Below, piece after piece: positions 4,169-56,689 of a stretch of 64,000 nucleotides of DNA. Source of the DNA: Candidatus Rokuibacteriota bacterium (lineage in GTDB: Bacteria; Methylomirabilota; Methylomirabilia; Rokubacteriales; CSP1-6); NCBI GenBank assembly GCA_003220435.1, contig QHSL01000070.1:5511-69510 (forward strand), given 5' to 3'. Position numbers and translations under genes: made by a program. Below the pieces are notes generated by a model. The model saw only the letters and a list, made by a program, of their open reading frames with translations. It was not told where the DNA came from and made no database searches. How positions within the stretch are numbered: the first letter of the stretch is position 1; each line of letters begins with the position of its first letter.

Positions 4169-5299
4169 ATGCGCTCGCGTCTCGCGGTCGGTTATCTCCT
4201 GCCGCGAATCCTCCTCGTGACCCTGATGATCGACGGCGGTCTTCGCTTTCTGCCGACGCGTCTGTTCACGTTCCGTCCCGAGATGCGATACCGGCTGCCC
4301 GGTGAGGCCTACGAAAGGAATGCGCACACCGTCAACGCCGTCGCCTACGGTGACCTGGCGGGGCTCGGCAATCTGCGCGACTTTCGGCAGTATCGCCCGG
4401 ACACGATGACCACCGATGGCTGGGGATTCCGCAATCTGCCATACCCCGGGCCGTTCTGCGCGATCCTGATCGGCGATTCGTTCGCGATCGGCGGCGTCGG
4501 TGTCGGCGACCGTGAAACGCTCTCGGCCCGGCTCCAGGAATTGTGGGACTGCGGCGTCTACAACGCCGCCGGCGCCACCGATCCGGCCCTGCAGGCGCCC
4601 CATGCGCAACGGGTCGCCTCGATGGCGCGGCGACTCGGTCTCGGCAAGGGTTTGGTGCTTGCGGAATTCGTGGAGCGGCTCCCGACGCCCACGATCCCAC
4701 CCCTCCCGCCGGCGTCCGCGGACGACGAGTCGAGCCCGCCGCCGCTCGCGCGTCGGCTCATGACGCTCGGGATGGGCTGGGCGAGCTTCTCCCCAGGGAA
4801 AATTCTGGCCCAGCGCGTGGGCAGCCGCCTCGAGAACGACACGGTGCTGCCGAACCGACACGCCAGGCGGGTGCCGCGAGCCACCCTCCGCGACGGGCAC
4901 TGGATGCTCTTCTTCGACGAAGAGATGGAGACGTACACGCCGGAGCGGCGCGTCTCGGCCGAGTATTGGATCTGGCTACGGCGGCAACTCGCGGAGGTGG
5001 ATCTGGAGCTCCTGGTCGTCCTGGTGCCGAACAAGTACACCGTCTACCACGATCTCCTCCGTGACGAGCCGCCGCAGGCGGTCGAGCCGGGAGAATCGCT
5101 CACGCGCCTGACGGCGCAATTGCGCGACGCCGGCGTCCCGGTGGTGAACGTCACCAGCGTCCTTCGCGCGGGCGCCGCGAGCGCCGTGGCCGAGGGGATC
5201 CACCTGTACTTTCAGGACGACACCCACTGGAACGCCCACGGCATCGACGTCGCCGCCCGCGCGGTGGCTCGTGCATGGCGCGAGGTTCTCGGGCCGTGA
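4169..5299 (+). CDS. AlgJ/AlgX-like SGNH-fold protein, the probable periplasmic partner of the MBOAT for polysaccharide O-acetylation.
   Basis: N-terminal TM anchor (LLPRILLVTLMIDGGL). GDSF block (ILIGDSFAIGG) and a C-terminal DTHWN motif (YFQDDTHWNAHG) typical of AlgJ/AlgX-type SGNH proteins. Directly downstream of the MBOAT gene. Confidence 0.7.
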   Translation: MRSRLAVGYLLPRILLVTLMIDGGLRFLPTRLFTFRPEMRYRLPGEAYERNAHTVNAVAYGDLAGLGNLRDFRQYRPDTMTTDGWGFRNLPYPGPFCAILIGDSFAIGGVGVGDRETLSARLQELWDCGVYNAAGATDPALQAPHAQRVASMARRLGLGKGLVLAEFVERLPTPTIPPLPPASADDESSPPPLARRLMTLGMGWASFSPGKILAQRVGSRLENDTVLPNRHARRVPRATLRDGHWMLFFDEEMETYTPERRVSAEYWIWLRRQLAEVDLELLVVLVPNKYTVYHDLLRDEPPQAVEPGESLTRLTAQLRDAGVPVVNVTSVLRAGAASAVAEGIHLYFQDDTHWNAHGIDVAARAVARAWREVLGP

Positions 5300-9489: not shown

Positions 9490-10398
9490 CTAGACCGTGT
9501 CCATGAACGTGCGCTCGACGCGCGTGAACAGCATCAGGCCGACGGCGAGCAGCGCCAGCATCGCGCCGAAGCTGGCCAGGAGCTGCGTGAGGCTGGCGGA
9601 GCCGACGCCGAGAAAGCCGAGGCGGAAGCCCTCCATCACCGGCGTGAGCGGATTGAGCAGCAGCGCCCACCGGAGGCGCTCGGGCACCGCCGACAGGGGA
9701 TAGATGACCGGGGTGGCATACATCAGCAGCTGGACCCCAAACGTGATCAACTGCCCGAGGTCGCGGTAGCGGGTCGTCAGCGCGCACACGACGATGCCGC
9801 CGCCCAGGGCGTACCCCGCCAGCAACAGGAGAAACAGGGGCGTCAAGAGCGCCCATGCCGTCAGGCTCAGCGGCGCGCCGGAGACGACGTGGGCGCCGAG
9901 GAAGACGAGGAAAATGCCGAGCTGGATCGCGAAGGAGATCAGACTGGAGATGACCACGGAGATCGGAAGGACCAGACGATGAAAGTACACCTTCCCGAGC
10001 AGCCCGGCGTTCCACACGAACGTCCGGGCAGTGCTGGTCAGCGAGCCGGCGAAATAATTCCACAGCACAGTGCCCGCCAGGTAGAAAAGGAACGGCGGCG
10101 CCCCGTCGGTCGGCAGCGCCGCCAGCGTGCCGAAGACGATCGTGAACGTGAGGGTCGTGAGCAGCGGTTGAACGACGTGCCACGCGGGCCCCAGGATCGT
10201 CTGCTTGTACATCGATACGAAATCACGCCAGACGAACAGGCTGATCAGGTCCCGATAGCGCCACAGCTGGCCCAGGCGCCAATCGAACCAGCCGCGGTGA
10301 GGCGAAATGACCGTGGCGGCGCCCGCGGCGCGTTGCCCCTCACCGCGCGCACGCAGGGTCCCGCCCCTCTGGCGACTGTCCGCGACCACGTTCACCAC
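9490..10398 (-). CDS. wzm: Wzm: ABC-2-type polysaccharide export permease.
   Basis: Six-TM hydrophobic protein with a WRYRDLISLFVWRDF N-terminal motif typical of Wzm/KpsM/TagG permeases. Directly upstream of wzt. Confidence 0.85.
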   Translation of the reverse strand: MVNVVADSRQRGGTLRARGEGQRAAGAATVISPHRGWFDWRLGQLWRYRDLISLFVWRDFVSMYKQTILGPAWHVVQPLLTTLTFTIVFGTLAALPTDGAPPFLFYLAGTVLWNYFAGSLTSTARTFVWNAGLLGKVYFHRLVLPISVVISSLISFAIQLGIFLVFLGAHVVSGAPLSLTAWALLTPLFLLLLAGYALGGGIVVCALTTRYRDLGQLITFGVQLLMYATPVIYPLSAVPERLRWALLLNPLTPVMEGFRLGFLGVGSASLTQLLASFGAMLALLAVGLMLFTRVERTFMDTV

Positions 10399-10613
10399 AG
10401 ACGGATCATCACGAAGCCGCGCTGCTGGAGCTCGTCGTAGACGTCACGCCGCTCGCGCCGCGCCGGGCCGCTCGCGGCGCCGGGATCCGCGCCCGGCGGA
10501 GCGATGCGACGGTCCAGCAGCACCTTGATGTCGGGCATGCCCGCGAAGACGGTCTCGAAATAACTGAGCAGATCGGGGCGGTCACGCGCGACCACGACGA
10601 TGACCCGCAGCAT
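10392..10613 (-). CDS. Small hypothetical protein (73 aa), possibly translationally coupled to wzm; paralogue of the 10781-11047 ORF.
   Basis: ATG 10613 is preceded on the minus strand by a GGGGGAG Shine-Dalgarno 4 nt upstream. Its stop overlaps the wzm start by 7 bp. Shares the motif pattern hhhVxRxDxxLxxYhxxxFxxxxxhxVhLDRRxxxxG...RRxhxxELxxxGFVhhxL with the divergent neighbour. Confidence 0.45.
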   Translation of the reverse strand: MLRVIVVVARDRPDLLSYFETVFAGMPDIKVLLDRRIAPPGADPGAASGPARRERRDVYDELQQRGFVMIRLW

Positions 10614-10700
10614 CAGTCTCCCCCGTCAGAAAACTTTCCAATTGGACCGTGGCCCTTGCGGGATCCACGAGAAAGCACGGAGTTTCAACATCTTCTGAAA

Positions 10701-10715
10701 TGGCACCGCATATGC
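10701..10715 (+). promoter_or_regulatory. Candidate sigma-54 (-24/-12) promoter: TGGCAC-N5-ATGC.
   Basis: aaaTGGCACcgcatATGCTcg has a perfect -24 TGGCAC, exact 5-nt spacer and the GC of the -12 element. The predicted start site is ~55 nt upstream of ATG 10781. Confidence 0.3.
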
Positions 10716-10780
10716 TCGTGTCCGATTCAATGCGTCCAGCAAGCACGGAACCTCACGTTCGACGGCTGCTCGAGGGCCAC

Positions 10781-11047
10781 ATGGCTCGGCATCTGTTCCT
10801 CGTCTCGCGCCACGATGCTCGTCTCTATGAGTATCTGGTCGATCGGTTTCGGGACGATAGAAACGTCGAAGTCATCCTCGATCGCCGTCACATCGAGCGC
10901 CGGGGCCGAACGCACCCGCCCGCGTACGTAGGCGGCGATCGCCGGCGCGGCGACCGCCGGACTCGGCGCGAGCTCGACCTGGAGCTCAAGGTCCGGTCTC
11001 ACGTGATCCTGACGATCCCCGACGCCGACACCCCTCCCCATTTATAG
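10781..11047 (+). CDS. Small hypothetical protein (88 aa from ATG 10781; ORF opens at 10649/10700), paralogue of 10392-10613.
   Basis: HLFLVSRHDARLYEYLVDRFRDDRNVEVILDRRHIERRG and RRELDLELKVRSHVILTIP parallel the motif order of the divergent small ORF. A GAGGG sits 4 nt before ATG 10781. TAG at 11045-11047. Confidence 0.4.
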   Translation: MARHLFLVSRHDARLYEYLVDRFRDDRNVEVILDRRHIERRGRTHPPAYVGGDRRRGDRRTRRELDLELKVRSHVILTIPDADTPPHL

Positions 11048-11048
11048 C

Positions 11049-11220
11049 CGCGCCTCGGCCGGCGGGGCCCCAGCCCCGCGACGGCCTGCAGCGCGTACTT
11101 TTCCAGAGTCGCACCTCGGCTGGCGGGGCCCCAGCCCGCGACGGCCTGCAGCGCGTACTTTTCCAGAGTCGCACCTCGGCCGGCGGGGCCCCAGCCCCGC
11201 GACGGCCTGCAGCGCGTACT
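11049..11220. repeat. Tandem direct repeat of ~60 bp: 2 full copies plus 1 truncated copy, each carrying a GC-rich hairpin.
   Basis: Copies at 11049-11109, 11110-11169 and 11170-11220 (cgcacctcggcYggcggggccccagccc(c)gcgacggcctgcagcgcgtacttttccagagt). Each contains the inverted repeat ggccgGCGGGGCcccaGCCCCGCgacggcc. It fills the whole gap between the convergent small ORF (stop 11047) and the TPR-protein gene (stop 11227). Confidence 0.9.
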
Positions 11221-11226
11221 ACGGTC

Positions 11227-14200
11227 CTAGGACGCGCCGAGCTCGCGCAGCACACGGCGCGCCTCGACGGCATCGGTAGATTTCTCGTCCAGCTGGAGCG
11301 AGCGCCTCAGCGACACGATCGCATCCTCTTTCTTCCCGAGCTGGTAGTAGGTCATCCCCAGGTGATGGTGGACCGGCGCGATCCGCGCGCCGAGCTCGGC
11401 CGCCCGCTTGAGGATCGGCTCCGCCTTCGCGTACTCCCCGCGCTGGTAGTACACGAAGCCGACGGTGTCGAGGACCGACGCGGAATTGGGCGCGGCCTCC
11501 TGCGCGCTCAGCGCCAGCGTCAGCGCTTCCGCGAGGTTCTGGGTCCGCGACGCGTAGATCCACGCGAGGTTGTTGAGCACCGCCGCATCCTTTGGATTCA
11601 GGCTCTGCGCCTTCCGATAGGAGGCGATCGCCCGGTCGACCTCGCCCTTCCGCTCGTAGGCGTTCCCGAGCAAGAAGTGGGCGGGCGCGTGACCGGGCTG
11701 CAGGGCGACCACGGTGCTCAGCGCGTCGGTCGCCGGCTGGAGATTGCCGCGCTGGAGCTGGAGCTGGCCGATGATGTAGTGCGCCGCCGCCAGCTTGGGC
11801 TGGCGGGCGACCGCGTCCTTCGCGAGCGCCAGCGCTTCGTCGAACCGTCCGGCCTGCGCTTTCAGGCTGGCCAGCCGTAGCTTCAGGTCCACGTTGGGCG
11901 GGCTCACCCGGTGGGCCGTGTCGAGGTGCTGGATCGCCGCCTCGACGTTGCCCTTGCGCTGGTGGTAATCGCCGAGCAGCAGGTTCGCCTGGAGATTCTC
12001 AGGCTCCGAGCGCACGACCGCCTTGAGGTAGTCGGCCGCCTCCTCCGCCTTCTTGTCGTGAAGACGCAGCAGGCCCATCGCGAGGTTGGCCGGAACGAAC
12101 GTCGGCGCGACCTCGAGGATCCGCCGGTACTCGGCTTCGGCTTCCGCTCGCTGGCTCCGGGCCAGGTACGCCCGCGCCAGCGCGTTGCGGACGGCGACGT
12201 TGCTCCCATCCTTCTCGAGCGCGGTCTTGAGCTCGCCGATCTGCTCGACCAGCAGCGCATCGTCTGGCTTCTGGCCCGACAGCGCCGCCATCTCGATCCG
12301 GATCCCCTTGGTGTCGGGCGCGAGCTCGAGGGCCTTTTGGTACGATCGCCGCGCGCCGTCCAGGTCGCCCCGCGCGAGCAGCGCGCGCGCGCGGTAGTAG
12401 TGGCCCGCCGCGATGTTCGGATTGATCTGGTTCACCTGATCGAACTGCGTGATCGCCTCTGCGGTGTTGTACTTGCCGAGGTAGGCGAGGCCGAGGAGGA
12501 TCCGCGGCTGCACGGAGCCTGGATCGCCGGAGACCACGGGCGAGAGCAAGCTCACCGCGTCGTCGTATCGGGCTCGCTTGATATAGAGGTGGCTCAGCGC
12601 CAGGGTCAGCTCGCGCGCTGGGGGCGTGGCCTTGATCGCCGGCTCGAGGACCGCGATCGCCTGGTCGAACCGGACGTGCGCGGCGTGAACGCTCGCCAGT
12701 GTGAGCGCGGCGGCGACGTCGGCCGGCCGATCAGTCAGGATCCGCTGGAGCTGCGCGACCGCTTCACCCTCGCGCTTCCCGGTTAGCAGCAGCCGGGCCA
12801 GGGCGAAGCGCGCGGGCGCGAACCGCTCGTCGACTGCGATCGCGCGCTTGAGCTCCTCCTCGGCCTTCTTCTGGTCACCCTTCTTGTCGTGGAGCGCGGC
12901 CAGCGTCAGGATCAGCTCGGGGTTCTTCGGGTCGGCCTTCAGCGTGGCCTGCAGCGCGGCAAGCGCCTCGTCGGTCCGGTTCTGCTGGACGAGCGTGGCG
13001 ACCTTCGCCCGCAGCGCGGGCACGTATTTCGGGTTCGCCCGGAGCGCCGTCTCGTATTCCCGGAGCGCATCCTGGGGCTTCTTCTCGCTGTTGTAGACGT
13101 TTCCGAGCGCCAGCCGCCCGGGCGCGAAGCTCGGATCGACCTCGACCGCCCTCGCGTACATGTCCTCGGCGCGCTTGAGGTCGCCGCGGGCGACGTAGAT
13201 CGCCCCGAGCACTCCGTAGGGCTGCGCGCTCTGGGGCATGAGCCCGGTGGCGGTCTGGGCCGACTTCACCGCCCGGTCGAAATCTCCGAGCCGGAGATGC
13301 GCCCGAGCCACTTGCAGATGGTACTCGCCGACCTTCTCCATCGGCCTGGTGATCGCGTCGAACTCGCGAAGCGCCTCGCGCGCGCGACCACCGGCCAGGT
13401 AGGCGCCTCCCAGGCCGTAGCGGAAGAGGGGGTTGTCGGGGGCTCGCGCCACGATCGCCTGAAATTCGACGACCGCATCGTCGACCCGGTTGAGCCCAAC
13501 GAAGGCGTGCGCGAGCAAGTAGCGCACGACCGGCGTGTCCGGCAACGACCGGGCGAGCGGCCGCAGGGCCAGGATCGCCTTCTCGTACTCCTGGGCCCGG
13601 ACGTAGTACCCCCCCAGGACGACCACGACGCGCGGCGACCATGCCTGACGCGGCAGGGTTTCAAGATCCTTGATCGCGTCAAGGAGCCGGCCGTCCACGG
13701 CGTGGAGCTCGCTGGACGCCAGGGCGACTTTCGGGCTCTGCGGAGCCACCACCTTCGCCTGATTCACGACTTCGCGGGCGGCATCGCGCTGGCCCTGACG
13801 CAGCAGCAGCCCGGCGAGCCCGATCAGTGCGTCGGGATATTTCGGCCTCTCGACGAGTGCGTCGCGATAGGCCTTCTCGGCCTCCGCCAGGCGCCCGAGG
13901 ATCGCGAGGGAGTCGCCTAGAGCCCGCTGGACCTCAGGCGTCCCGGGACCGCGCGCGAGAGCCTTCGACAGTAGCGCCGCCGCCTGCTGGGCGTCTCCCT
14001 GGCCGTTGAGCACGGCCCCCCTCACGTAGAGCTCCGCCGCGCTCTCGGGAGCCTTCGCCCGGATCGCGTCGGCCTGCTCCAGCGCCGCGTTCCATCCCTC
14101 GAGGTCGAGGTACGACTGCGCCAGGTCGGCGCGCGCCTCGAGATTGTCGGGCTGCAACTCGACTGCCCGCTGGAACTCCCGCATGGCGTCGACGTTCCAG

Positions 14201-14427
14201 GACTTGGCGCGATACGCGCGGCCCATCGCGTGGAGAGCGGGCGCGAATTTCGGATCGATCTGGAGAGCGTTTTTCAGCTGAAGGATCGCCTCGTTGTACT
14301 TGCCTTCGGTGTGGTACTTGATCCCCCGCTCCAGATATTGCTGCTTCTTCACGTTCGGGTCCTGAGTGCAGGCCCCGAGCATCAGCGCGCACAGCAAGCA
14401 CACCTGGAGACGGCGGCGCGTCCTCAT
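11227..14427 (-). CDS. prsT: PEP-CTERM-system TPR-repeat lipoprotein (PrsT-like), ~1067 aa.
   Basis: Start trimmed to ATG 14427 (MRTRRRLQVCLLCALMLGACTQ: signal peptide plus lipobox LGAC), with a GAGAGGA Shine-Dalgarno 6 nt upstream. The entire protein is tandem TPR repeats (AxxxYxxAxxxxP pattern), as in the TIGR02917-type protein found with exosortase A loci. Confidence 0.88.
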   Translation of the reverse strand: MRTRRRLQVCLLCALMLGACTQDPNVKKQQYLERGIKYHTEGKYNEAILQLKNALQIDPKFAPALHAMGRAYRAKSWNVDAMREFQRAVELQPDNLEARADLAQSYLDLEGWNAALEQADAIRAKAPESAAELYVRGAVLNGQGDAQQAAALLSKALARGPGTPEVQRALGDSLAILGRLAEAEKAYRDALVERPKYPDALIGLAGLLLRQGQRDAAREVVNQAKVVAPQSPKVALASSELHAVDGRLLDAIKDLETLPRQAWSPRVVVVLGGYYVRAQEYEKAILALRPLARSLPDTPVVRYLLAHAFVGLNRVDDAVVEFQAIVARAPDNPLFRYGLGGAYLAGGRAREALREFDAITRPMEKVGEYHLQVARAHLRLGDFDRAVKSAQTATGLMPQSAQPYGVLGAIYVARGDLKRAEDMYARAVEVDPSFAPGRLALGNVYNSEKKPQDALREYETALRANPKYVPALRAKVATLVQQNRTDEALAALQATLKADPKNPELILTLAALHDKKGDQKKAEEELKRAIAVDERFAPARFALARLLLTGKREGEAVAQLQRILTDRPADVAAALTLASVHAAHVRFDQAIAVLEPAIKATPPARELTLALSHLYIKRARYDDAVSLLSPVVSGDPGSVQPRILLGLAYLGKYNTAEAITQFDQVNQINPNIAAGHYYRARALLARGDLDGARRSYQKALELAPDTKGIRIEMAALSGQKPDDALLVEQIGELKTALEKDGSNVAVRNALARAYLARSQRAEAEAEYRRILEVAPTFVPANLAMGLLRLHDKKAEEAADYLKAVVRSEPENLQANLLLGDYHQRKGNVEAAIQHLDTAHRVSPPNVDLKLRLASLKAQAGRFDEALALAKDAVARQPKLAAAHYIIGQLQLQRGNLQPATDALSTVVALQPGHAPAHFLLGNAYERKGEVDRAIASYRKAQSLNPKDAAVLNNLAWIYASRTQNLAEALTLALSAQEAAPNSASVLDTVGFVYYQRGEYAKAEPILKRAAELGARIAPVHHHLGMTYYQLGKKEDAIVSLRRSLQLDEKSTDAVEARRVLRELGAS

Positions 14428-14468
14428 CGACAGTCCTCTCGCGACGTACTGCGGCTTCCACTTCTTGG

Positions 14469-14484
14469 GCAATTGGGATGCCAA
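14469..14484 (-). promoter_or_regulatory. Sigma-54 promoter for prsT: TGGCAT-N5-TTGC.
   Basis: The minus strand reads gcTTGGCATcccaaTTGCcc, with exact -24/-12 spacing. The predicted start site is ~30 nt upstream of the prsT ATG. Three sigma-54 enhancer-binding proteins are encoded in the window. Confidence 0.55.
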
Positions 14485-14756
14485 GCCTAGCACCTTCCTT
14501 CTCGGTTTCCGGTCGGAACTCTTTCTTCAGGTGTTCAACATCTGATCAGCGAGGTGGACAGTGGAGGAGTGATGTCAATTATTTGATTCAGTGCACTTTT
14601 TACCACGTCGGCCCCGGCAGTGACCGAGAACCGTGGCAAAATCCCGGCCATACGCCGACGCCACGCAAATGCTGCCACGCCGCAAAATATGCAAGGGAAC
14701 CGAAGGGTTGGGAAGCGCAGTTCCCTTTGGTACTCGCCTTGCTCGATCCTCAGCTC

Positions 14757-31011: not shown

Positions 31012-32957
31012 GCGTCGTGACCGCGCCGACACTCGACGCGCCGCCGGCGGAGTCTTATCGGTTCGACCCGCTCACGAGCGTCGAGGCCGCACGCTGGGAT
31101 CAGCTGATCACGCCGTACGACGGGCGCACGCTCTTCCATCAGAGCATGTGGCTCGACTACCTGGCGGCCAGTCGCCGCGTCGAGACCGCGCGGTGGGCGA
31201 TCCGCACCGAGGATCGGACCGTCGGCTACCTCTGCGGCGGCTTCTTGCAGATGGGCCCCTATCGGATCCTCGGCACGCCGCTGCGGAGCTGGGGCACGAA
31301 CGTCATGGGCCCCCTGCTCGATCACGACGCCGACCAGACCGCGCTCTTCCGCGCGCTCGATCGCCTGGCGGCCGCCGACCGGCTCGCGATGATCGAGCTC
31401 GAGCACCCCAGCCTGTCGCCCCGCCTGCTCCAGTCCTTCGGCTTCGCGCCGGTGGAGGACTGGACATATCGGGTGACGCTCGACGAGCCGAACGCGATGT
31501 GGCGCCGGCTCGAGTCCACCTGCCGCAATCGCATTCGCAAGGCGCAGACGGCCGGCCTCGTGGTCGAGGACACCGACGATCCGGCGGTCGCCGACGAATA
31601 CTACGATTTCTACCTGGACCTGATGCGCCGGAAGGGCCGCCGGCCGCCCTTCTCGCGCGAGACGCCGCGGCTGCTCTTCTCGCATCTGAAGAAAGCGGAC
31701 TGCCTGTTCGCGCTGCGCGTGCGGGACGCGGCGGGCCGCCTCCTCGCCGTCGGCCTGTTCCCGCACGACGAGCACGCCATGTACTTCTGGAGCGGCGCCA
31801 GCCGGGAAGAGAGTCATCCGCTGTGCCCCAACGACCACATGCAGTGGGTCGCCATGGGGCTGGGCGCCGGCCACGGGCTTCGGCTCTACAACATGTCCGG
31901 TCACGGACGGTTCAAGCGGAAGTTCGGCGGCACCCTGACCGCGGTCGCCCGCTGGCACAAGTGCTACTGGCGGACGGCGAAGTGGGCGCGCAAGGGCTAC
32001 CAGCTCTGGGCCGAAACGTCGGCGGCGCGCATGCCCTGGCGCCCGACCACCCCGCGATCGAGCGAGCCGAAGCGGGCCGCGCCCGCGCGGCGGAGCGTCG
32101 AGATCGTCACGACGTCGCAGCGGCCGTCGTTCCGGCCCTCGGACATTTTCAAGGCGCCGCTCCACGACTTCCCGATCCGGGACGAGATCCTCTATCAGTA
32201 CCTGTCGCTCTCGCCGGACATGGACGTGCTCGAAGTCGGGCCGGGCAGCGGTGTCACCGCGTTCCGTGTCGCCCGTCGCCTCCGCTCGCTGACCCTGGTC
32301 GACATCGCCGCGGCGAACATCGCCCATCTGCGCGGCGCGCTTGGCGGCCAGCCGAACATCCGCTTCGTGCGCGCCGACGTCTGCCAGCCCGGGCTGGGAG
32401 CGCTGCTCGGACGCACCTTCGATGCCGCGTACGCGATCGAGGTGTTCGAGCTCTTGCCGGATCCTGAGCAGTGCCTGCGGAACCTCGCGGCGGTGATCCG
32501 ACCTGGCGGGCGGCTGCTGCTCCAGTTCCCCAACTATCCGCCGTCGCTTTCGCCCGGCATGACGCACTTCCGCACCAAGGCGGAGCTCGGGCGGCTCCTG
32601 CAACGCGCGGGCTTCGGGGAGTGGAGCGTGTGCTCGCTGCGGCTGCGCCGGCACGCCTGGCTCCTGTACGAGCACCTGCACGAGCGGCCGATCCGCGCCT
32701 ACCGGCGCCACCGGAGCCCCAACGGCCACGATCGCCCGCTGATCTATGACGAGTCGTGGGCGTTCCAGCACGGCCGGCGGCTGGAGCCGTTCAAGTACGC
32801 GCTGCACGCCGCGTGGGCGGCCCTGTCGGCGGCGATGCGCGCCGGCGGCCCGGCCTTCGACCACGCCGCGGTCGGCGACGACATACTCAACCGCAACCTG
32901 ATCGTGCTCGCGCGCCGCTCGCGAGGCAGAGCCAGGCCCCTTGACCGAGACGCCTAA
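31008..32957 (+). CDS. FemAB-like (GNAT-fold, PEP-CTERM-associated type) domain fused to a C-terminal class I SAM-dependent methyltransferase domain.
   Basis: GTG 31008 overlaps the upstream TGA. The N-terminal ~350 aa resemble FemAB-family proteins associated with exosortase loci. The C-terminal ~250 aa carry MTase motif I (VLEVGPGSGVTAFRVA) and a post-I acidic residue (LVDIA). Confidence 0.72.
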   Translation: MSVVTAPTLDAPPAESYRFDPLTSVEAARWDQLITPYDGRTLFHQSMWLDYLAASRRVETARWAIRTEDRTVGYLCGGFLQMGPYRILGTPLRSWGTNVMGPLLDHDADQTALFRALDRLAAADRLAMIELEHPSLSPRLLQSFGFAPVEDWTYRVTLDEPNAMWRRLESTCRNRIRKAQTAGLVVEDTDDPAVADEYYDFYLDLMRRKGRRPPFSRETPRLLFSHLKKADCLFALRVRDAAGRLLAVGLFPHDEHAMYFWSGASREESHPLCPNDHMQWVAMGLGAGHGLRLYNMSGHGRFKRKFGGTLTAVARWHKCYWRTAKWARKGYQLWAETSAARMPWRPTTPRSSEPKRAAPARRSVEIVTTSQRPSFRPSDIFKAPLHDFPIRDEILYQYLSLSPDMDVLEVGPGSGVTAFRVARRLRSLTLVDIAAANIAHLRGALGGQPNIRFVRADVCQPGLGALLGRTFDAAYAIEVFELLPDPEQCLRNLAAVIRPGGRLLLQFPNYPPSLSPGMTHFRTKAELGRLLQRAGFGEWSVCSLRLRRHAWLLYEHLHERPIRAYRRHRSPNGHDRPLIYDESWAFQHGRRLEPFKYALHAAWAALSAAMRAGGPAFDHAAVGDDILNRNLIVLARRSRGRARPLDRDA

Positions 32958-54970: not shown

Positions 54971-56689
54971 TTAGAACAAGAAATAACGCTGAGCCATGGG
55001 CAACACCTGTGCCGGCTCGCACGTCAGGACTTCGTCGTTCGCGCGCACCTGATACGTCTCGGGATCGACCTCGATGCGAGGCAGCGCGTCGTTGTGGATC
55101 ATGTCCCGCTTGCCGAGCCCGCGACAGCGGGCCACCGCGACCGCTCGCCGCGCGAGGCCCAGGCGCTGCGGCACGCCGCCGGCGAGCGCCGCCGCCGAGA
55201 CGAACGTGAGCGACGTGGCGCCGACCGCGCGGCCGAACGCGCCGAACATCGGTCGATAGAGCACGGGCTGAGGCGTCGGGATCGACGCGTTCGGATCGCC
55301 CATCGCCGCCCAGGCGATGACGCCGCCCTTGACGACCAGCTCGGGCTTGACGCCGAAGAACGCGGGCTTCCACAGCACGAGATCCGCGAGCTTGCCCCGC
55401 TCCACCGACCCGACGTGGTCGGCCAGGCCGTGGGCAATCGCTGGGTTGATGGTGTACTTCGCGACGTAGCGCTTCACGCGCAGGTTGTCGTCGCCCGGCG
55501 TCTCGCCGGGGAGCGGGCCACGCTGGCGCTTCATCTTGTCCGCGGTCTGCCAGGTGCGGATGACGACCTCGCCGATCCGGCCCATCGCCTGCGAGTCGGA
55601 GGACATCATGCTGATCGCGCCCAGATCGTGCAGCACGTCCTCGGCGGCGATCGTCTCGGCGCGGATCCGCGACTCGGCGAAGGCCAGGTCCTCCGGGATC
55701 CGGGCGCTCAGATGGTGGCAGACCATCAGCATGTCGAGGTGCTCGTCCATGGTGTTCACCGTGAACGGCATCGTGGGGTTCGTCGACGACGGCAGGCAGT
55801 TTGGCTCGCCGCAGACGCGGATGATGTCGGGCGCGTGGCCGCCCCCGGCGCCCTCGGTGTGATAGGTGTGGATCGTCCGCCCCTTGAAGGCGCGGATCGA
55901 GTCCTCGACGAAGCCGCTCTCGTTCAGCGTGTCGGTGTGGATCGCCACCTGCACGTCGAGCTCGTCGGCGACCCCGAGCGCACAGTCGATCGCCGCCGGC
56001 GTCGTGCCCCAGTCCTCGTGGAGCTTGAGCCCGATGGCGCCCGCGAAGATCTGCTCGCGCAGCGGCTCGGGCGCCGAGGCGTTGCCCTTGCCGAGAAAGC
56101 CGAGGTTGATCGGAAATGCCTCGGCGGCCTCGAGCATCCGGTGCACGTTCCACACGCCGGGCGTGCACGTCGTGGCGTTGGTTCCGGTCGCCGGGCCGGT
56201 GCCGCCGCCGACCAGCGTCGTGAGACCGGCGCTGATCGCCTCGAACACGAGCTGCGGGCAGATCAGATGGACGTGCGCGTCGAGCCCACCCGCGGTCACG
56301 ATCCGCCCCTCGCCGGCGATCACCTCGGTGGCCGCGCCGACGACCATACCCTCGCTGACGCCCGCCATCAGATCCGGGTTCCCCGCCTTTCCGACGCCGA
56401 CGATCCGCCCATCGCGAATCCCGATGTCGGCCTTCACGATGCCCCAGTGGTCCACGATGACCGCGTTGGTGATGACGACGTCGAGAGCGCCCTCGGCGCG
56501 CGTGGCGCGGACGGACTGACCCATGCCATCGCGGATCACCTTGCCGCCGCCGAACTTCGCCTCTTCGCCCGGCGTCGTCAGGTCCCGCTCGATCCGGATG
56601 AACAGCTCGGTGTCGGCCAGGCGCACGCGGTCGCCGGTGGTCGGGCCGTAGAGATCCGCGTACTGCCGGCGGGTCATCCTGAGGGTCAT
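54971..56689 (-). CDS. ureC: Urease alpha subunit UreC.
   Basis: [30 protein letters not shown] and the HxH, carbamylated-Lys region and MVCHHL motifs. ATG 56689 overlaps the ureB stop (ATGA); the ORF extends to 56704. Confidence 0.95.

Follow-up and report, generated by a model that had tools for sequence, protein, structure and literature searches.

REPs are GC-rich imperfect palindromes of 20-40 nt that are typically present in more than 100 copies per genome. MIRU-type VNTR loci of mycobacteria consist of 40-100-nt units dispersed between genes and within operons. REP/RAYT systems act on single-stranded DNA, in which they recognise a tetranucleotide on the 5' side of a bulged palindrome; the AG of this tetranucleotide determines the C|T sites to be cleaved, and the related IS200/IS605 elements insert in a strand-specific manner (PMC8266576). 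REP termini can supply TAG stop codons, tandem reiteration of REPs is known, and junctions between convergent genes are typical locations for terminators and REPs alike (PMC3733652).

The locus analysed here lies at such a junction. The stretch of DNA under analysis, designated the window, comprises 64,000 nt of contig QHSL01000070.1 and has a G+C content of 69%. Three head-to-tail copies of a palindromic unit separate a small conserved gene from a convergent prsT gene. These units are, with high probability, copies of a non-autonomous REP-like palindromic element dispersed in soil Rokubacteria (GTDB Methylomirabilota). The family appears to be undescribed, although the kind of element is well known; the literature searched contained no paper linking Rokubacteria or Methylomirabilota with REP- or MITE-type repeats. 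The features of the locus are the following.

10781..11047, + strand: small conserved gene, 88 aa, Arg-rich (P0160 100% identical, called as 88 aa)
11030..11039, + strand: tag-side flank ACCCCTCCCC, CT-rich, abutting the 5' side of the 11039/11040 insertion point
11040..11100, + strand: unit 1, with tag ATTTATAGC (11040-11048), 50-nt core (11049-11098), and linker TT (CM R1)
11101..11160, + strand: unit 2, with tag TTCCAGAGT, degenerate 49-nt core, and linker TT (CM R1)
11161..11221, + strand: unit 3, with tag TTCCAGAGT, 50-nt core (11170-11219), then TA (CM R1)
11222..11231, + strand: right flank CGGTCCTAGG, ancestral sequence, with overlapping convergent stops in CTAG (11227-11230)
11227..14493, - strand: PrsT-like PEP-CTERM-system TPR lipoprotein gene, convergent with the small gene (TIGR02917)

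Analysis of the 64-kb window with TRF identified the array as the top tandem repeat (positions 11049-11220, period 60, 2.8 copies, 95% matches), with a score of 323 versus 60 for the runner-up. This score bears out the three tandem repeats of about 60 bp that a first-pass annotation had reported at 11049-11220. The partition into 61 + 60 + 51 bp has to be corrected, since the unit begins 9 nt earlier. Defined by comparison with the empty site, the inserted block extends from 11040 to 11221 (182 nt, 61 + 60 + 61). The true unit of the array has 60-61 nt: the tag (ATTTATAGC or TTCCAGAGT, 9 nt) is followed by a bulged GC hairpin (50 nt) whose last nucleotides are GCGCGTAC and by 2 linker nucleotides. 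An exact 30-nt hairpin core is found at both 11057-11086 and 11178-11207, for 0 matches expected from shuffled sequences.

Unit 1 matched covariance model CM R1 at 11040-11098 (90.4 bits, E-value of 4e-22), and its core is identical in unrelated loci, such as L007, L008, and L012. The left boundary of the block was set by the empty site in L064-L068. In unit 2 (11101-11158, 72.1 bits), the core has undergone a C>T change at 11121 and a 1-nt deletion in the 3' arm of the stem. Unit 3 (11161-11219, 84.6 bits), whose right boundary was also set by the empty site, matches the single copy present in a Methylomirabilota MAG (locus L001) with 98.3% identity over 59 nt that include the tag. BLASTN (word size 7) and the covariance model detected no copy in the window beyond the three array units, as the first-pass annotation had stated for the 64 kb. 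The next window match to the covariance model scored 22 bits and is located within a coding region. Weak BLASTN matches at window positions 32793-32841 (coding region) and at positions 2539-2578 of L001 (an unrelated hairpin) were rejected.

The hairpin comprises about 17 bp with a GA bulge, the outer CGCGC/GCGCG pairing surrounding the GGCCG/CGGCC and GCGGGGC/GCCCCGC stems; the stem of about 12 bp described previously was too short, as it did not include the outer pairing. The CGCGC/GCGCG inverted termini are simply the base of the palindrome. The consensus unit folded as RNA with energies of -34.2 kcal/mol (+ strand) and -39.5 kcal/mol (- strand), corresponding to z scores of about -2.5. As single-stranded DNA, the energies were -22.1 and -23.7 kcal/mol (z about -3). 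The unit is therefore a short GC-rich imperfect palindrome capable of forming a stem-loop, as are REPs. The earlier description of each copy as a GC-rich hairpin is valid for the consensus unit but not for copy 2, which folded no better than shuffled sequence (-24.7 kcal/mol, z of -0.3). Unit 2 is decaying. Because the stems are bulged, the array was not listed by a gapless inverted-repeat finder, which detected no other comparable element in the window.

The first-pass annotation considered that the array filled a gap between convergent genes and started 2 bp after the stop codon of the small gene. Both statements have to be reversed: the array made the gap and supplies the stop codon. In relatives L064-L068, which read ..cccccggCCTAGGacgcgcc.., the TAG of the small ORF and the stop codon of prsT (CTA on the + strand) share the sequence CTAG, gene calls overlap by 4 nt, and there is no intergenic DNA. 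Since the stop codons overlap in these empty relatives, the whole intergenic gap present in the window was created by the array. The empty site reads ..acgcttcccc^cgg.., that is ..acgcttcccc^cggCCTAGGacgcgcc.. The last two codons and the stop codon of the small gene (CAT TTA TAG) originate from the tag of unit 1, the TAG being located at 11045-11047. As a consequence, the small protein ends with ..DADTPPHL in the window versus ..DDDTLPPA in relatives, its length being unchanged. The stop codon of prsT (11227-11229) was untouched by the insertion. Thus, the insertion altered the C-terminus and the stop codon of the small gene and separated two genes that formerly overlapped.

More than 160 homologues of the small gene were found, none of them named except PYN84904.1 (Candidatus Rokuibacteriota), and the search for Pfam or NCBIfam matches to this gene was negative. 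The small gene is on record with the 88-aa start; exact look-up of the 132-aa delimitation of this gene and of a 1088-aa ORF delimitation did not retrieve any record. The prsT gene matched TIGR02917 with a score of 469.8 bits (cutoff of 312). A 95-aa minus-strand ORF running across the array is spurious. The prsT orthologue of L064 is about 87% identical at the DNA level. L003, the closest in the PrsT orthologue search (68% identical), has an unalignable 134-nt gap, from which the element is absent. The element is also absent from the P0193 contig, where the gene context is different.

Alleles differing in the number of units were found at the window site and at the junction between rpsD and rpoA, the latter comparison covering populations with RpoA 91-100% identical.

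Window site, empty (0 units): L064-L068; identity of 84% for the small protein and of about 87% for the flanking DNA
Window site, 2 units: L062, assembled independently (ENA); 120-nt gap versus 179 nt, with flanks 99.6-99.85% identical
Window site, 3 units: window and L009/L063; ..cccctcccc[182 nt]cggtCCTAGG..
rpsD-rpoA, empty: six contigs; 8-nt gap, TAA GGAAGGCT ATG
rpsD-rpoA, 1 unit: L052, L058, and L027/L032; 70-nt gap
rpsD-rpoA, 2 head-to-tail units: three contigs; 132-nt gap

L009, a JGI contig belonging to the same record as L063 and assembled independently, is 99.89% identical to the window over 5346 nt, the differences being 6 SNPs without any gap; its three units are identical to those of the window. 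The 2-unit allele of L062, which comes from short-read assemblies and could in principle result from short-read collapse, is devoid of unit 2, and its second unit is similar to unit 3 with a private extra C. Copy number at the window site therefore varies (2 versus 3 units) among near-identical strains. In the filled rpsD-rpoA alleles, the stop codon of rpsD (TGA) is supplied by the element, and the two units of the double allele differ from each other. A shorter related palindrome (46 nt) is located between two genes in L058 and is absent from L051 and L055. In L022 and L023/L025, a first-subfamily copy has a copy of a second subfamily nested precisely within the loop of its hairpin. Finally, in the orthologous regions upstream from a MarR gene, the orientation of the element is reversed between L033 and L013.

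A search for dispersed copies had been proposed by the first-pass annotation, which listed a REP-like repetitive element among its readings of the array. This search retrieved copies at about 19 unrelated intergenic sites and, together with presence or absence of the element at orthologous sites, supports that reading. An exact 38-mer from the unit had a single match in 185,579 species-representative genomes; this match, in a Candidatus Methylomirabilota MAG (L001), is a single copy located upstream from a DUF1330 gene in a context unrelated to that of the window. A 21-mer invariant in four known copies matched 45 metagenome contigs, mostly from soil. The complete element was present in about 39 of the 45 contigs, in about 19 distinct flank contexts, and about 6 contigs were chance matches inside genes; the requirement for an exact 21-mer leads to under-representation of diverged members and biases the alignment in its 3' half. 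A match in a viral contig, obtained with a two-anchor pattern (n = 1), was rejected as a chance match since it was located inside a coding region and lacked a hairpin.

Copies at dispersed sites are about 90-100% identical, with a mean identity of 90% for the 21 distinct aligned copies. The unit size in the family is 59-62 nt. The alignment consists of a tag with the consensus nTTCATAGn or aTTCATAGn followed by the 50-nt core CGCGCCTCGGCCGGCGGGGCCCCAGCCCCGCGACGGCCTGCAGCGCGTAC, RTAG being located one base 5' of the stem and the conserved 3' end being GCGCG(T/C)AC. The covariance model based on the aligned copies recovered all known copies with scores of 64-90 bits. It also detected additional copies lacking the 21-mer, at 1.2-1.5 kb from known ones, in contigs L010 and L012, and a tandem partner in L011. 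No covariation was detected in the main subfamily, a result that is uninformative given that identity between copies is about 90% and that the search pattern fixed the 3' half. The subfamilies keep the hairpin despite sequence change, the outer stem GGCCG/CGGCC being replaced by GGGCC/GGCCC.

The genes adjacent to the element are unrelated. They encode a glyoxalase, two amidohydrolases, MarR, an aminotransferase, an alcohol dehydrogenase (ADH), a MetE-like protein, RpoA, a 2-hydroxyacid dehydrogenase, cytochrome oxidase subunit IV (COX4), and a DUF1330 protein. The element occupies short gaps between divergent, tandem, and convergent genes, at 1-36 nt from the flanking ORFs. Regarding the host, L001 is labelled Candidatus Methylomirabilota and the named RpoA homologues belong to Candidatus Rokubacteria. 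Non-redundant sequence surrounding selected copies (about 115 kb) contained only two additional dispersed sites, which suggests a density of one element per tens of kilobases at most. The 64-kb window contains one site, and the sole species-representative genome that was matched contains one exact copy. Abundance per genome may thus be well below the copy number usual for REPs.

Among described elements, the REP GTAG superfamily, BIMEs, and SMAG of Stenotrophomonas (RAYT/TnpA_REP) are close to this family and share the following features with it: an extragenic, GC-rich, bulged imperfect palindrome; an unpaired tag on one side, ending in TAG or AG, with a short conserved motif on the opposite side; the 1-nt spacer between tag and stem found in the REP GTAG-1/2 and Marinomonas types; and a location within a few nucleotides of gene ends, the TAG of the tag providing a stop codon in the case of unit 1. 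Subfamilies with alternative complementary stems, tandem reiteration, and the lack of target duplication are also common to both. The family departs from classical REPs by its length (59-62 nt versus 20-40 nt), by its tag, which is mainly of the ATAG type (GTAG in only 2 of 24 units), by its arrays, which were all head-to-tail whereas REP dimers are mostly head-to-head or tail-to-tail, and by its frequent position beside ribosome-binding sites, many copies being located just upstream from start codons rather than downstream of genes. The host phylum is outside the 8 phyla surveyed for REPs in a 2013 study.

Hairpin-based recognition and strand- or orientation-specific insertion 3' of a short target, with neither the usual terminal inverted repeats nor target-site duplication, also relate the element to the ends of IS200/IS605 elements and their miniatures. 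In contrast to IS200/IS605, which have two different subterminal hairpins, usually tnpA and tnpB, and a fixed tetra- or pentanucleotide target, the element has one hairpin, no gene, and a loose CT-rich target motif. Direct tandem arrays abutting stop or start codons, with copy numbers varying between close strains, are reminiscent of MIRUs. However, the latter lack strong palindromes, form their own sequence family, and often contain short coupled ORFs, no such ORF being evident in the element. Comparison of positions 10500-11800 with Rfam 15 gave best scores of 12-19 bits (miRNA or unrelated families) for thresholds of 42-97 bits, and the gathering-threshold Rfam scan of the whole window returned nothing at the array. 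An integron attC or cassette array was rejected since the ends (TTCATAGnCGCGCC...GCGCGTAC) lack the GTT/AAC cores (RYYYAAC ... GTTRRRY). The integron-cassette and regulon-leader ideas were dropped, the Pfam-annotated neighbours being unrelated housekeeping genes, including rpsD-rpoA. A CRISPR array was also rejected: the units abut, with 2 nt between a core and the next tag, and the whole 60 nt are repeated.

Comparison of empty and filled alleles at two sites revealed no target-site duplication beyond a 1-nt ambiguity. At 21 independent sites, the direct repeats flanking the element did not exceed those obtained by permuting the pairings (p = 0.89 and 0.28 in two tests). L001 and L051 have 6/7 flanking direct repeats, and a duplication-generating mechanism is possible for some events; the repeats at L051 (8 nt) and L001 (6 nt) were rejected as target duplications because they did not generalise. 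The two ends of the element differ by their flanks. A CT-rich motif (CTCC, CCTC, TCCT, or CCTT, within 10 nt of the tag end) adjoins the tag at 15 of the 21 sites, its equivalent being next to the opposite end at 3 of them (Fisher p = 4e-4). At most sites, the CT-rich flank is the reverse complement of the Shine-Dalgarno sequence of the neighbouring gene. At the window site, it is coding sequence (..CTCCCC), not a Shine-Dalgarno sequence, which supports target choice and argues against selection for a regulatory position.

In the tag, A is present at position -3 in 19 of 25 units, G at -2 in 16 of 25, and T at -4 in 15 of 25. The tetranucleotide located 1 nt 5' of the stem (24 units) is ATAG in 6 cases, GTAG, AGAG, and ATAA in 2 cases each, the rest being singletons. 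Thus, A is commoner than G at the first position, which differs from the published GTAG consensus, since its variants (GYAG, GYRG, GTRG, and GTMG) all keep G1. The conserved AG is the part that has been shown to select cleavage sites; in the case of Marinomonas TnpA_REP, altering it shifts the position of cleavage.

Because the element combines a hairpin with an asymmetric tag, orientation-specific junctions, no duplication, and insertions nested in loops, we infer mobilisation of the HUH/RAYT single-strand type. The element would move as single-stranded DNA by the action of an HUH/Y1 transposase of the RAYT or IS200/IS605 type, and the AG of its tag would select CT-rich target sites. In the lineage of the window, as comparison with the empty site shows, insertion took place between ..CTCCCC and CGG.., at the precise point where the stop codons of the small gene and prsT overlapped. 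The core of unit 1 begins with CGCGCC..., those of units 2 and 3 with CGCACC..., and the TTCCAGAGT tag is also found at the unrelated locus L001. The tag and core variant shared by units 2 and 3, unlike unit 1, suggest that at least two insertions took place side by side, possibly followed by local duplication or loss of one 60-nt unit. Since the double allele at rpsD-rpoA likewise consists of two different units, side-by-side insertion may be a general route to arrays. A six-frame search of 346 kb (window and loci) for the HUH motif [ML]P[NDET]HxH was negative, which is a weak test because a RAYT gene is usually single per genome. Cognate RAYT genes are generally bordered by REPs.

A different origin by transposition would be a conventional MITE, namely a deletion derivative of an IS with a DDE transposase amplified in tandem by recombination between duplications. 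The CGCGC...GCGCG termini can be read as inverted repeats, the rpsD-rpoA unit is bracketed by TGAGG/TAAGG with one such pentamer separating the tandem units, and the repeats flanking the L001 and L051 copies point in the same direction. We nevertheless consider this origin unlikely, since flanking repeats over the 21 sites did not exceed the permuted level, and no duplication of fixed length was detected, the empty and filled forms of the window site displaying none. In addition, the ends are asymmetric, with a conserved tag on one side only, orientation is biased with respect to a CT-rich flank that is not palindromic, and 466 kb of related sequence contained no IS with such ends. A structured cis-regulatory RNA (leader or translational operator) located just upstream from Shine-Dalgarno sequences, and present in triplicate in the window, is more doubtful still and very improbable. 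The tag end lies within about 3 nt of the reverse complement of a Shine-Dalgarno sequence at 15 of the 21 sites, with the start codon 5-9 nt further, and the hairpin is stable and retained by the subfamilies. However, the downstream genes have no common function, the element is found in either orientation with respect to transcription as well as between convergent genes, its CT-rich flank in the window is coding, its presence varies among close relatives at essential-gene junctions, and neither an Rfam match nor covariation within the family was detected. Least probable of all, to the point of being negligible, is an assembly artefact or a chance low-complexity GC repeat. Short-read assemblers can expand or collapse tandem repeats, and one related contig contains 2 units instead of 3, but the artefact that the first-pass annotation had envisaged is contradicted by the independent contig L009, which contains the same three units with their unit-specific variants in spite of 6 SNPs elsewhere. 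The unit is moreover present at about 19 other loci, and shuffled sequences gave 0 matches.

The remaining alternative, also put forward by the first-pass annotation, is a locally evolved multi-hairpin bidirectional terminator or attenuator insulating the small gene and prsT. It agrees with the strong GC hairpins on both strands, with the UACUUUUCC found on the + strand after units 1 and 2, and with the position between convergent genes, which is typical of terminators. Scanning positions 10300-11900 for canonical terminators (a GC-rich stem, then at least 5 T in 8 within 0-2 nt) and promoters did not reveal any terminator in the array. The + strand tail of the array is TACTTTTCC, that of the - strand CTATAAAT or ACTCTGGAAAA; a short UUUU is found on the + strand alone, where it follows the stems of units 1 and 2, but no other, at a distance of 3 nt. 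Thus, a GC-rich stem-loop at gene 3' ends and a short U run are shared with intrinsic terminators, but the U run is 3 nt away from the stem, the - strand has none, and the mobile family is also found inside operons. Indeed, the identical unit is present within operons and upstream from start codons, in either orientation, including one or two copies between rpsD and rpoA, where its orientation is that in which prsT transcripts would read the array. Relatives with overlapping stop codons have no hairpin, and copy number differs between strains with flanks more than 99.5% identical. As the element is tolerated in rpsD-rpoA, unit 2 is decaying, and relatives are hairpin-free, a dedicated bidirectional terminator is therefore improbable. 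Both convergent mRNAs would terminate within these highly stable hairpins or traverse them. REP hairpins can stabilise mRNA 3' ends, and a stabilising or terminating side effect of the hairpins on both convergent mRNAs is possible. Any such effect on transcription would be a by-product, not the reason for the sequence.

The array is most probably a selfish repeat of a known kind rather than a purpose-built terminator. With respect to annotation, the 180-nt 'intergenic region' is inserted mobile DNA rather than a regulatory module of the PEP-CTERM/EPS locus. Going further, and tentatively, the family could be an active, target-specific HUH/RAYT-like element of an uncultured phylum, whose tag directs insertion 3' of CT-rich (anti-Shine-Dalgarno-like) motifs. 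If so, its preferred landing points would be the immediate vicinity of ribosome-binding sites and stop codons, as well as the loops of existing copies. The element would rewrite gene termini, split overlapping genes, and form head-to-tail arrays by repeated insertion next to copies already in place, thereby providing a REP-type system with a readable targeting rule and natural alleles containing 0, 1, 2, or 3 copies.

The results extend the REP-like families to Rokubacteria/Methylomirabilota, a soil phylum documented mainly through metagenomes. They provide clean natural comparisons, which include empty, single, and multi-copy alleles at two sites, one of them the essential rpsD-rpoA junction, an insertion that parted genes with overlapping stop codons, and copies nested in loops. 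Together, these comparisons offer a concrete hypothesis for target choice and array growth in REP-type elements. The covariance model and the VNTR-like markers could aid strain typing and MAG curation in Rokubacteria/Methylomirabilota.

Insertion of one element into another was observed among the related loci, which contain copies of a second subfamily nested within copies of subfamily 1, the ~60-nt palindromic unit that forms the array:

L022, 6361-6481: subfamily 2 inside a subfamily-1 copy
L023, 33-149: subfamily 2 inside a subfamily-1 copy
L025, 2173-2289: subfamily 2 inside a subfamily-1 copy

The second subfamily is ~66 nt long and has the sequence CGCTCGCCTCGGGCCTGGGGGCCCCAGCCCCCCGGGCGGCCCTGCGGCTCGCAC. 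Its insertion point is precisely the loop of the subfamily-1 hairpin, as seen at two different genomic sites. The outer stem is GGCCG/CGGCC in subfamily 1 and GGGCC/GGCCC in subfamily 2, a difference of two compensatory pair changes.

Polymorphic copies of the element were detected between rpsD and rpoA (L051-L061 and L027/L032), their number being 0, 1, or 2 among populations with RpoA sequences 91-100% identical. The element at this junction is co-transcribed as part of the alpha operon, and it provides the stop codon of rpsD. For the final Ser of rpsD, the double-copy alleles L051 and L053 use TCC, which matches the tag end of the element (the unpaired side, 5' of the hairpin stem), versus AGC in the other alleles. 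The 3' end of rpsD may therefore have been converted by the repeat in L051 and L053.

The element was also found upstream of the MarR gene in two orthologous regions:

L033, 6499-6557, plus strand: element copy
L013, 13617-13673, minus strand: element copy

These regions are ~85% identical, with the element in opposite orientations. They also differ in the distance from the element to the start codon, and the first ~15 residues of MarR in L033 are unlike those in L013.

A shorter related palindrome was identified together with its empty counterparts:

L058, 15667-15716: palindrome of ~46 nt, CGCGCCCCGGCCCGCAGAGCGGCGATGGCCCGGGCGCGCAC
L051, ~5193-5206: empty site
L055, ~12039-12053: empty site

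The insertion point is located between the stop codon of a CNNM-family gene and the ribosome binding site of the next gene, where the relatives harbor TAAGGAG. The CNNM-family stop codon is TGA in the filled allele versus TAA in the relatives.

Beside the array, the window encodes two small Arg-rich proteins from a divergent gene pair:

10392-10613, minus strand: 73-aa protein
10781-11047, plus strand: 88-aa protein

The two proteins are 30% identical (E 2e-6), match no Pfam or NCBIfam family, and are kept as a pair in all related loci, even with different neighbor genes (L069). A homologue carries the name 'transcription termination factor Rho' in one JGI record, an apparent mis-annotation.

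The only Rfam match over the gathering threshold in the window was 5_ureB_sRNA (56242-56538, plus strand; 41.4 bits versus a threshold of 40). In Helicobacter pylori, members of this RNA family are antisense to ureB at its 5' end, and the match therefore probably just mirrors a urease gene on the opposite strand.

An additional reading frame spans the whole array and encodes a repeated peptide:

10986-11273, minus strand: 95-aa ORF

This ORF, which has no family match, is an artefact of the repeat that a gene caller could annotate.
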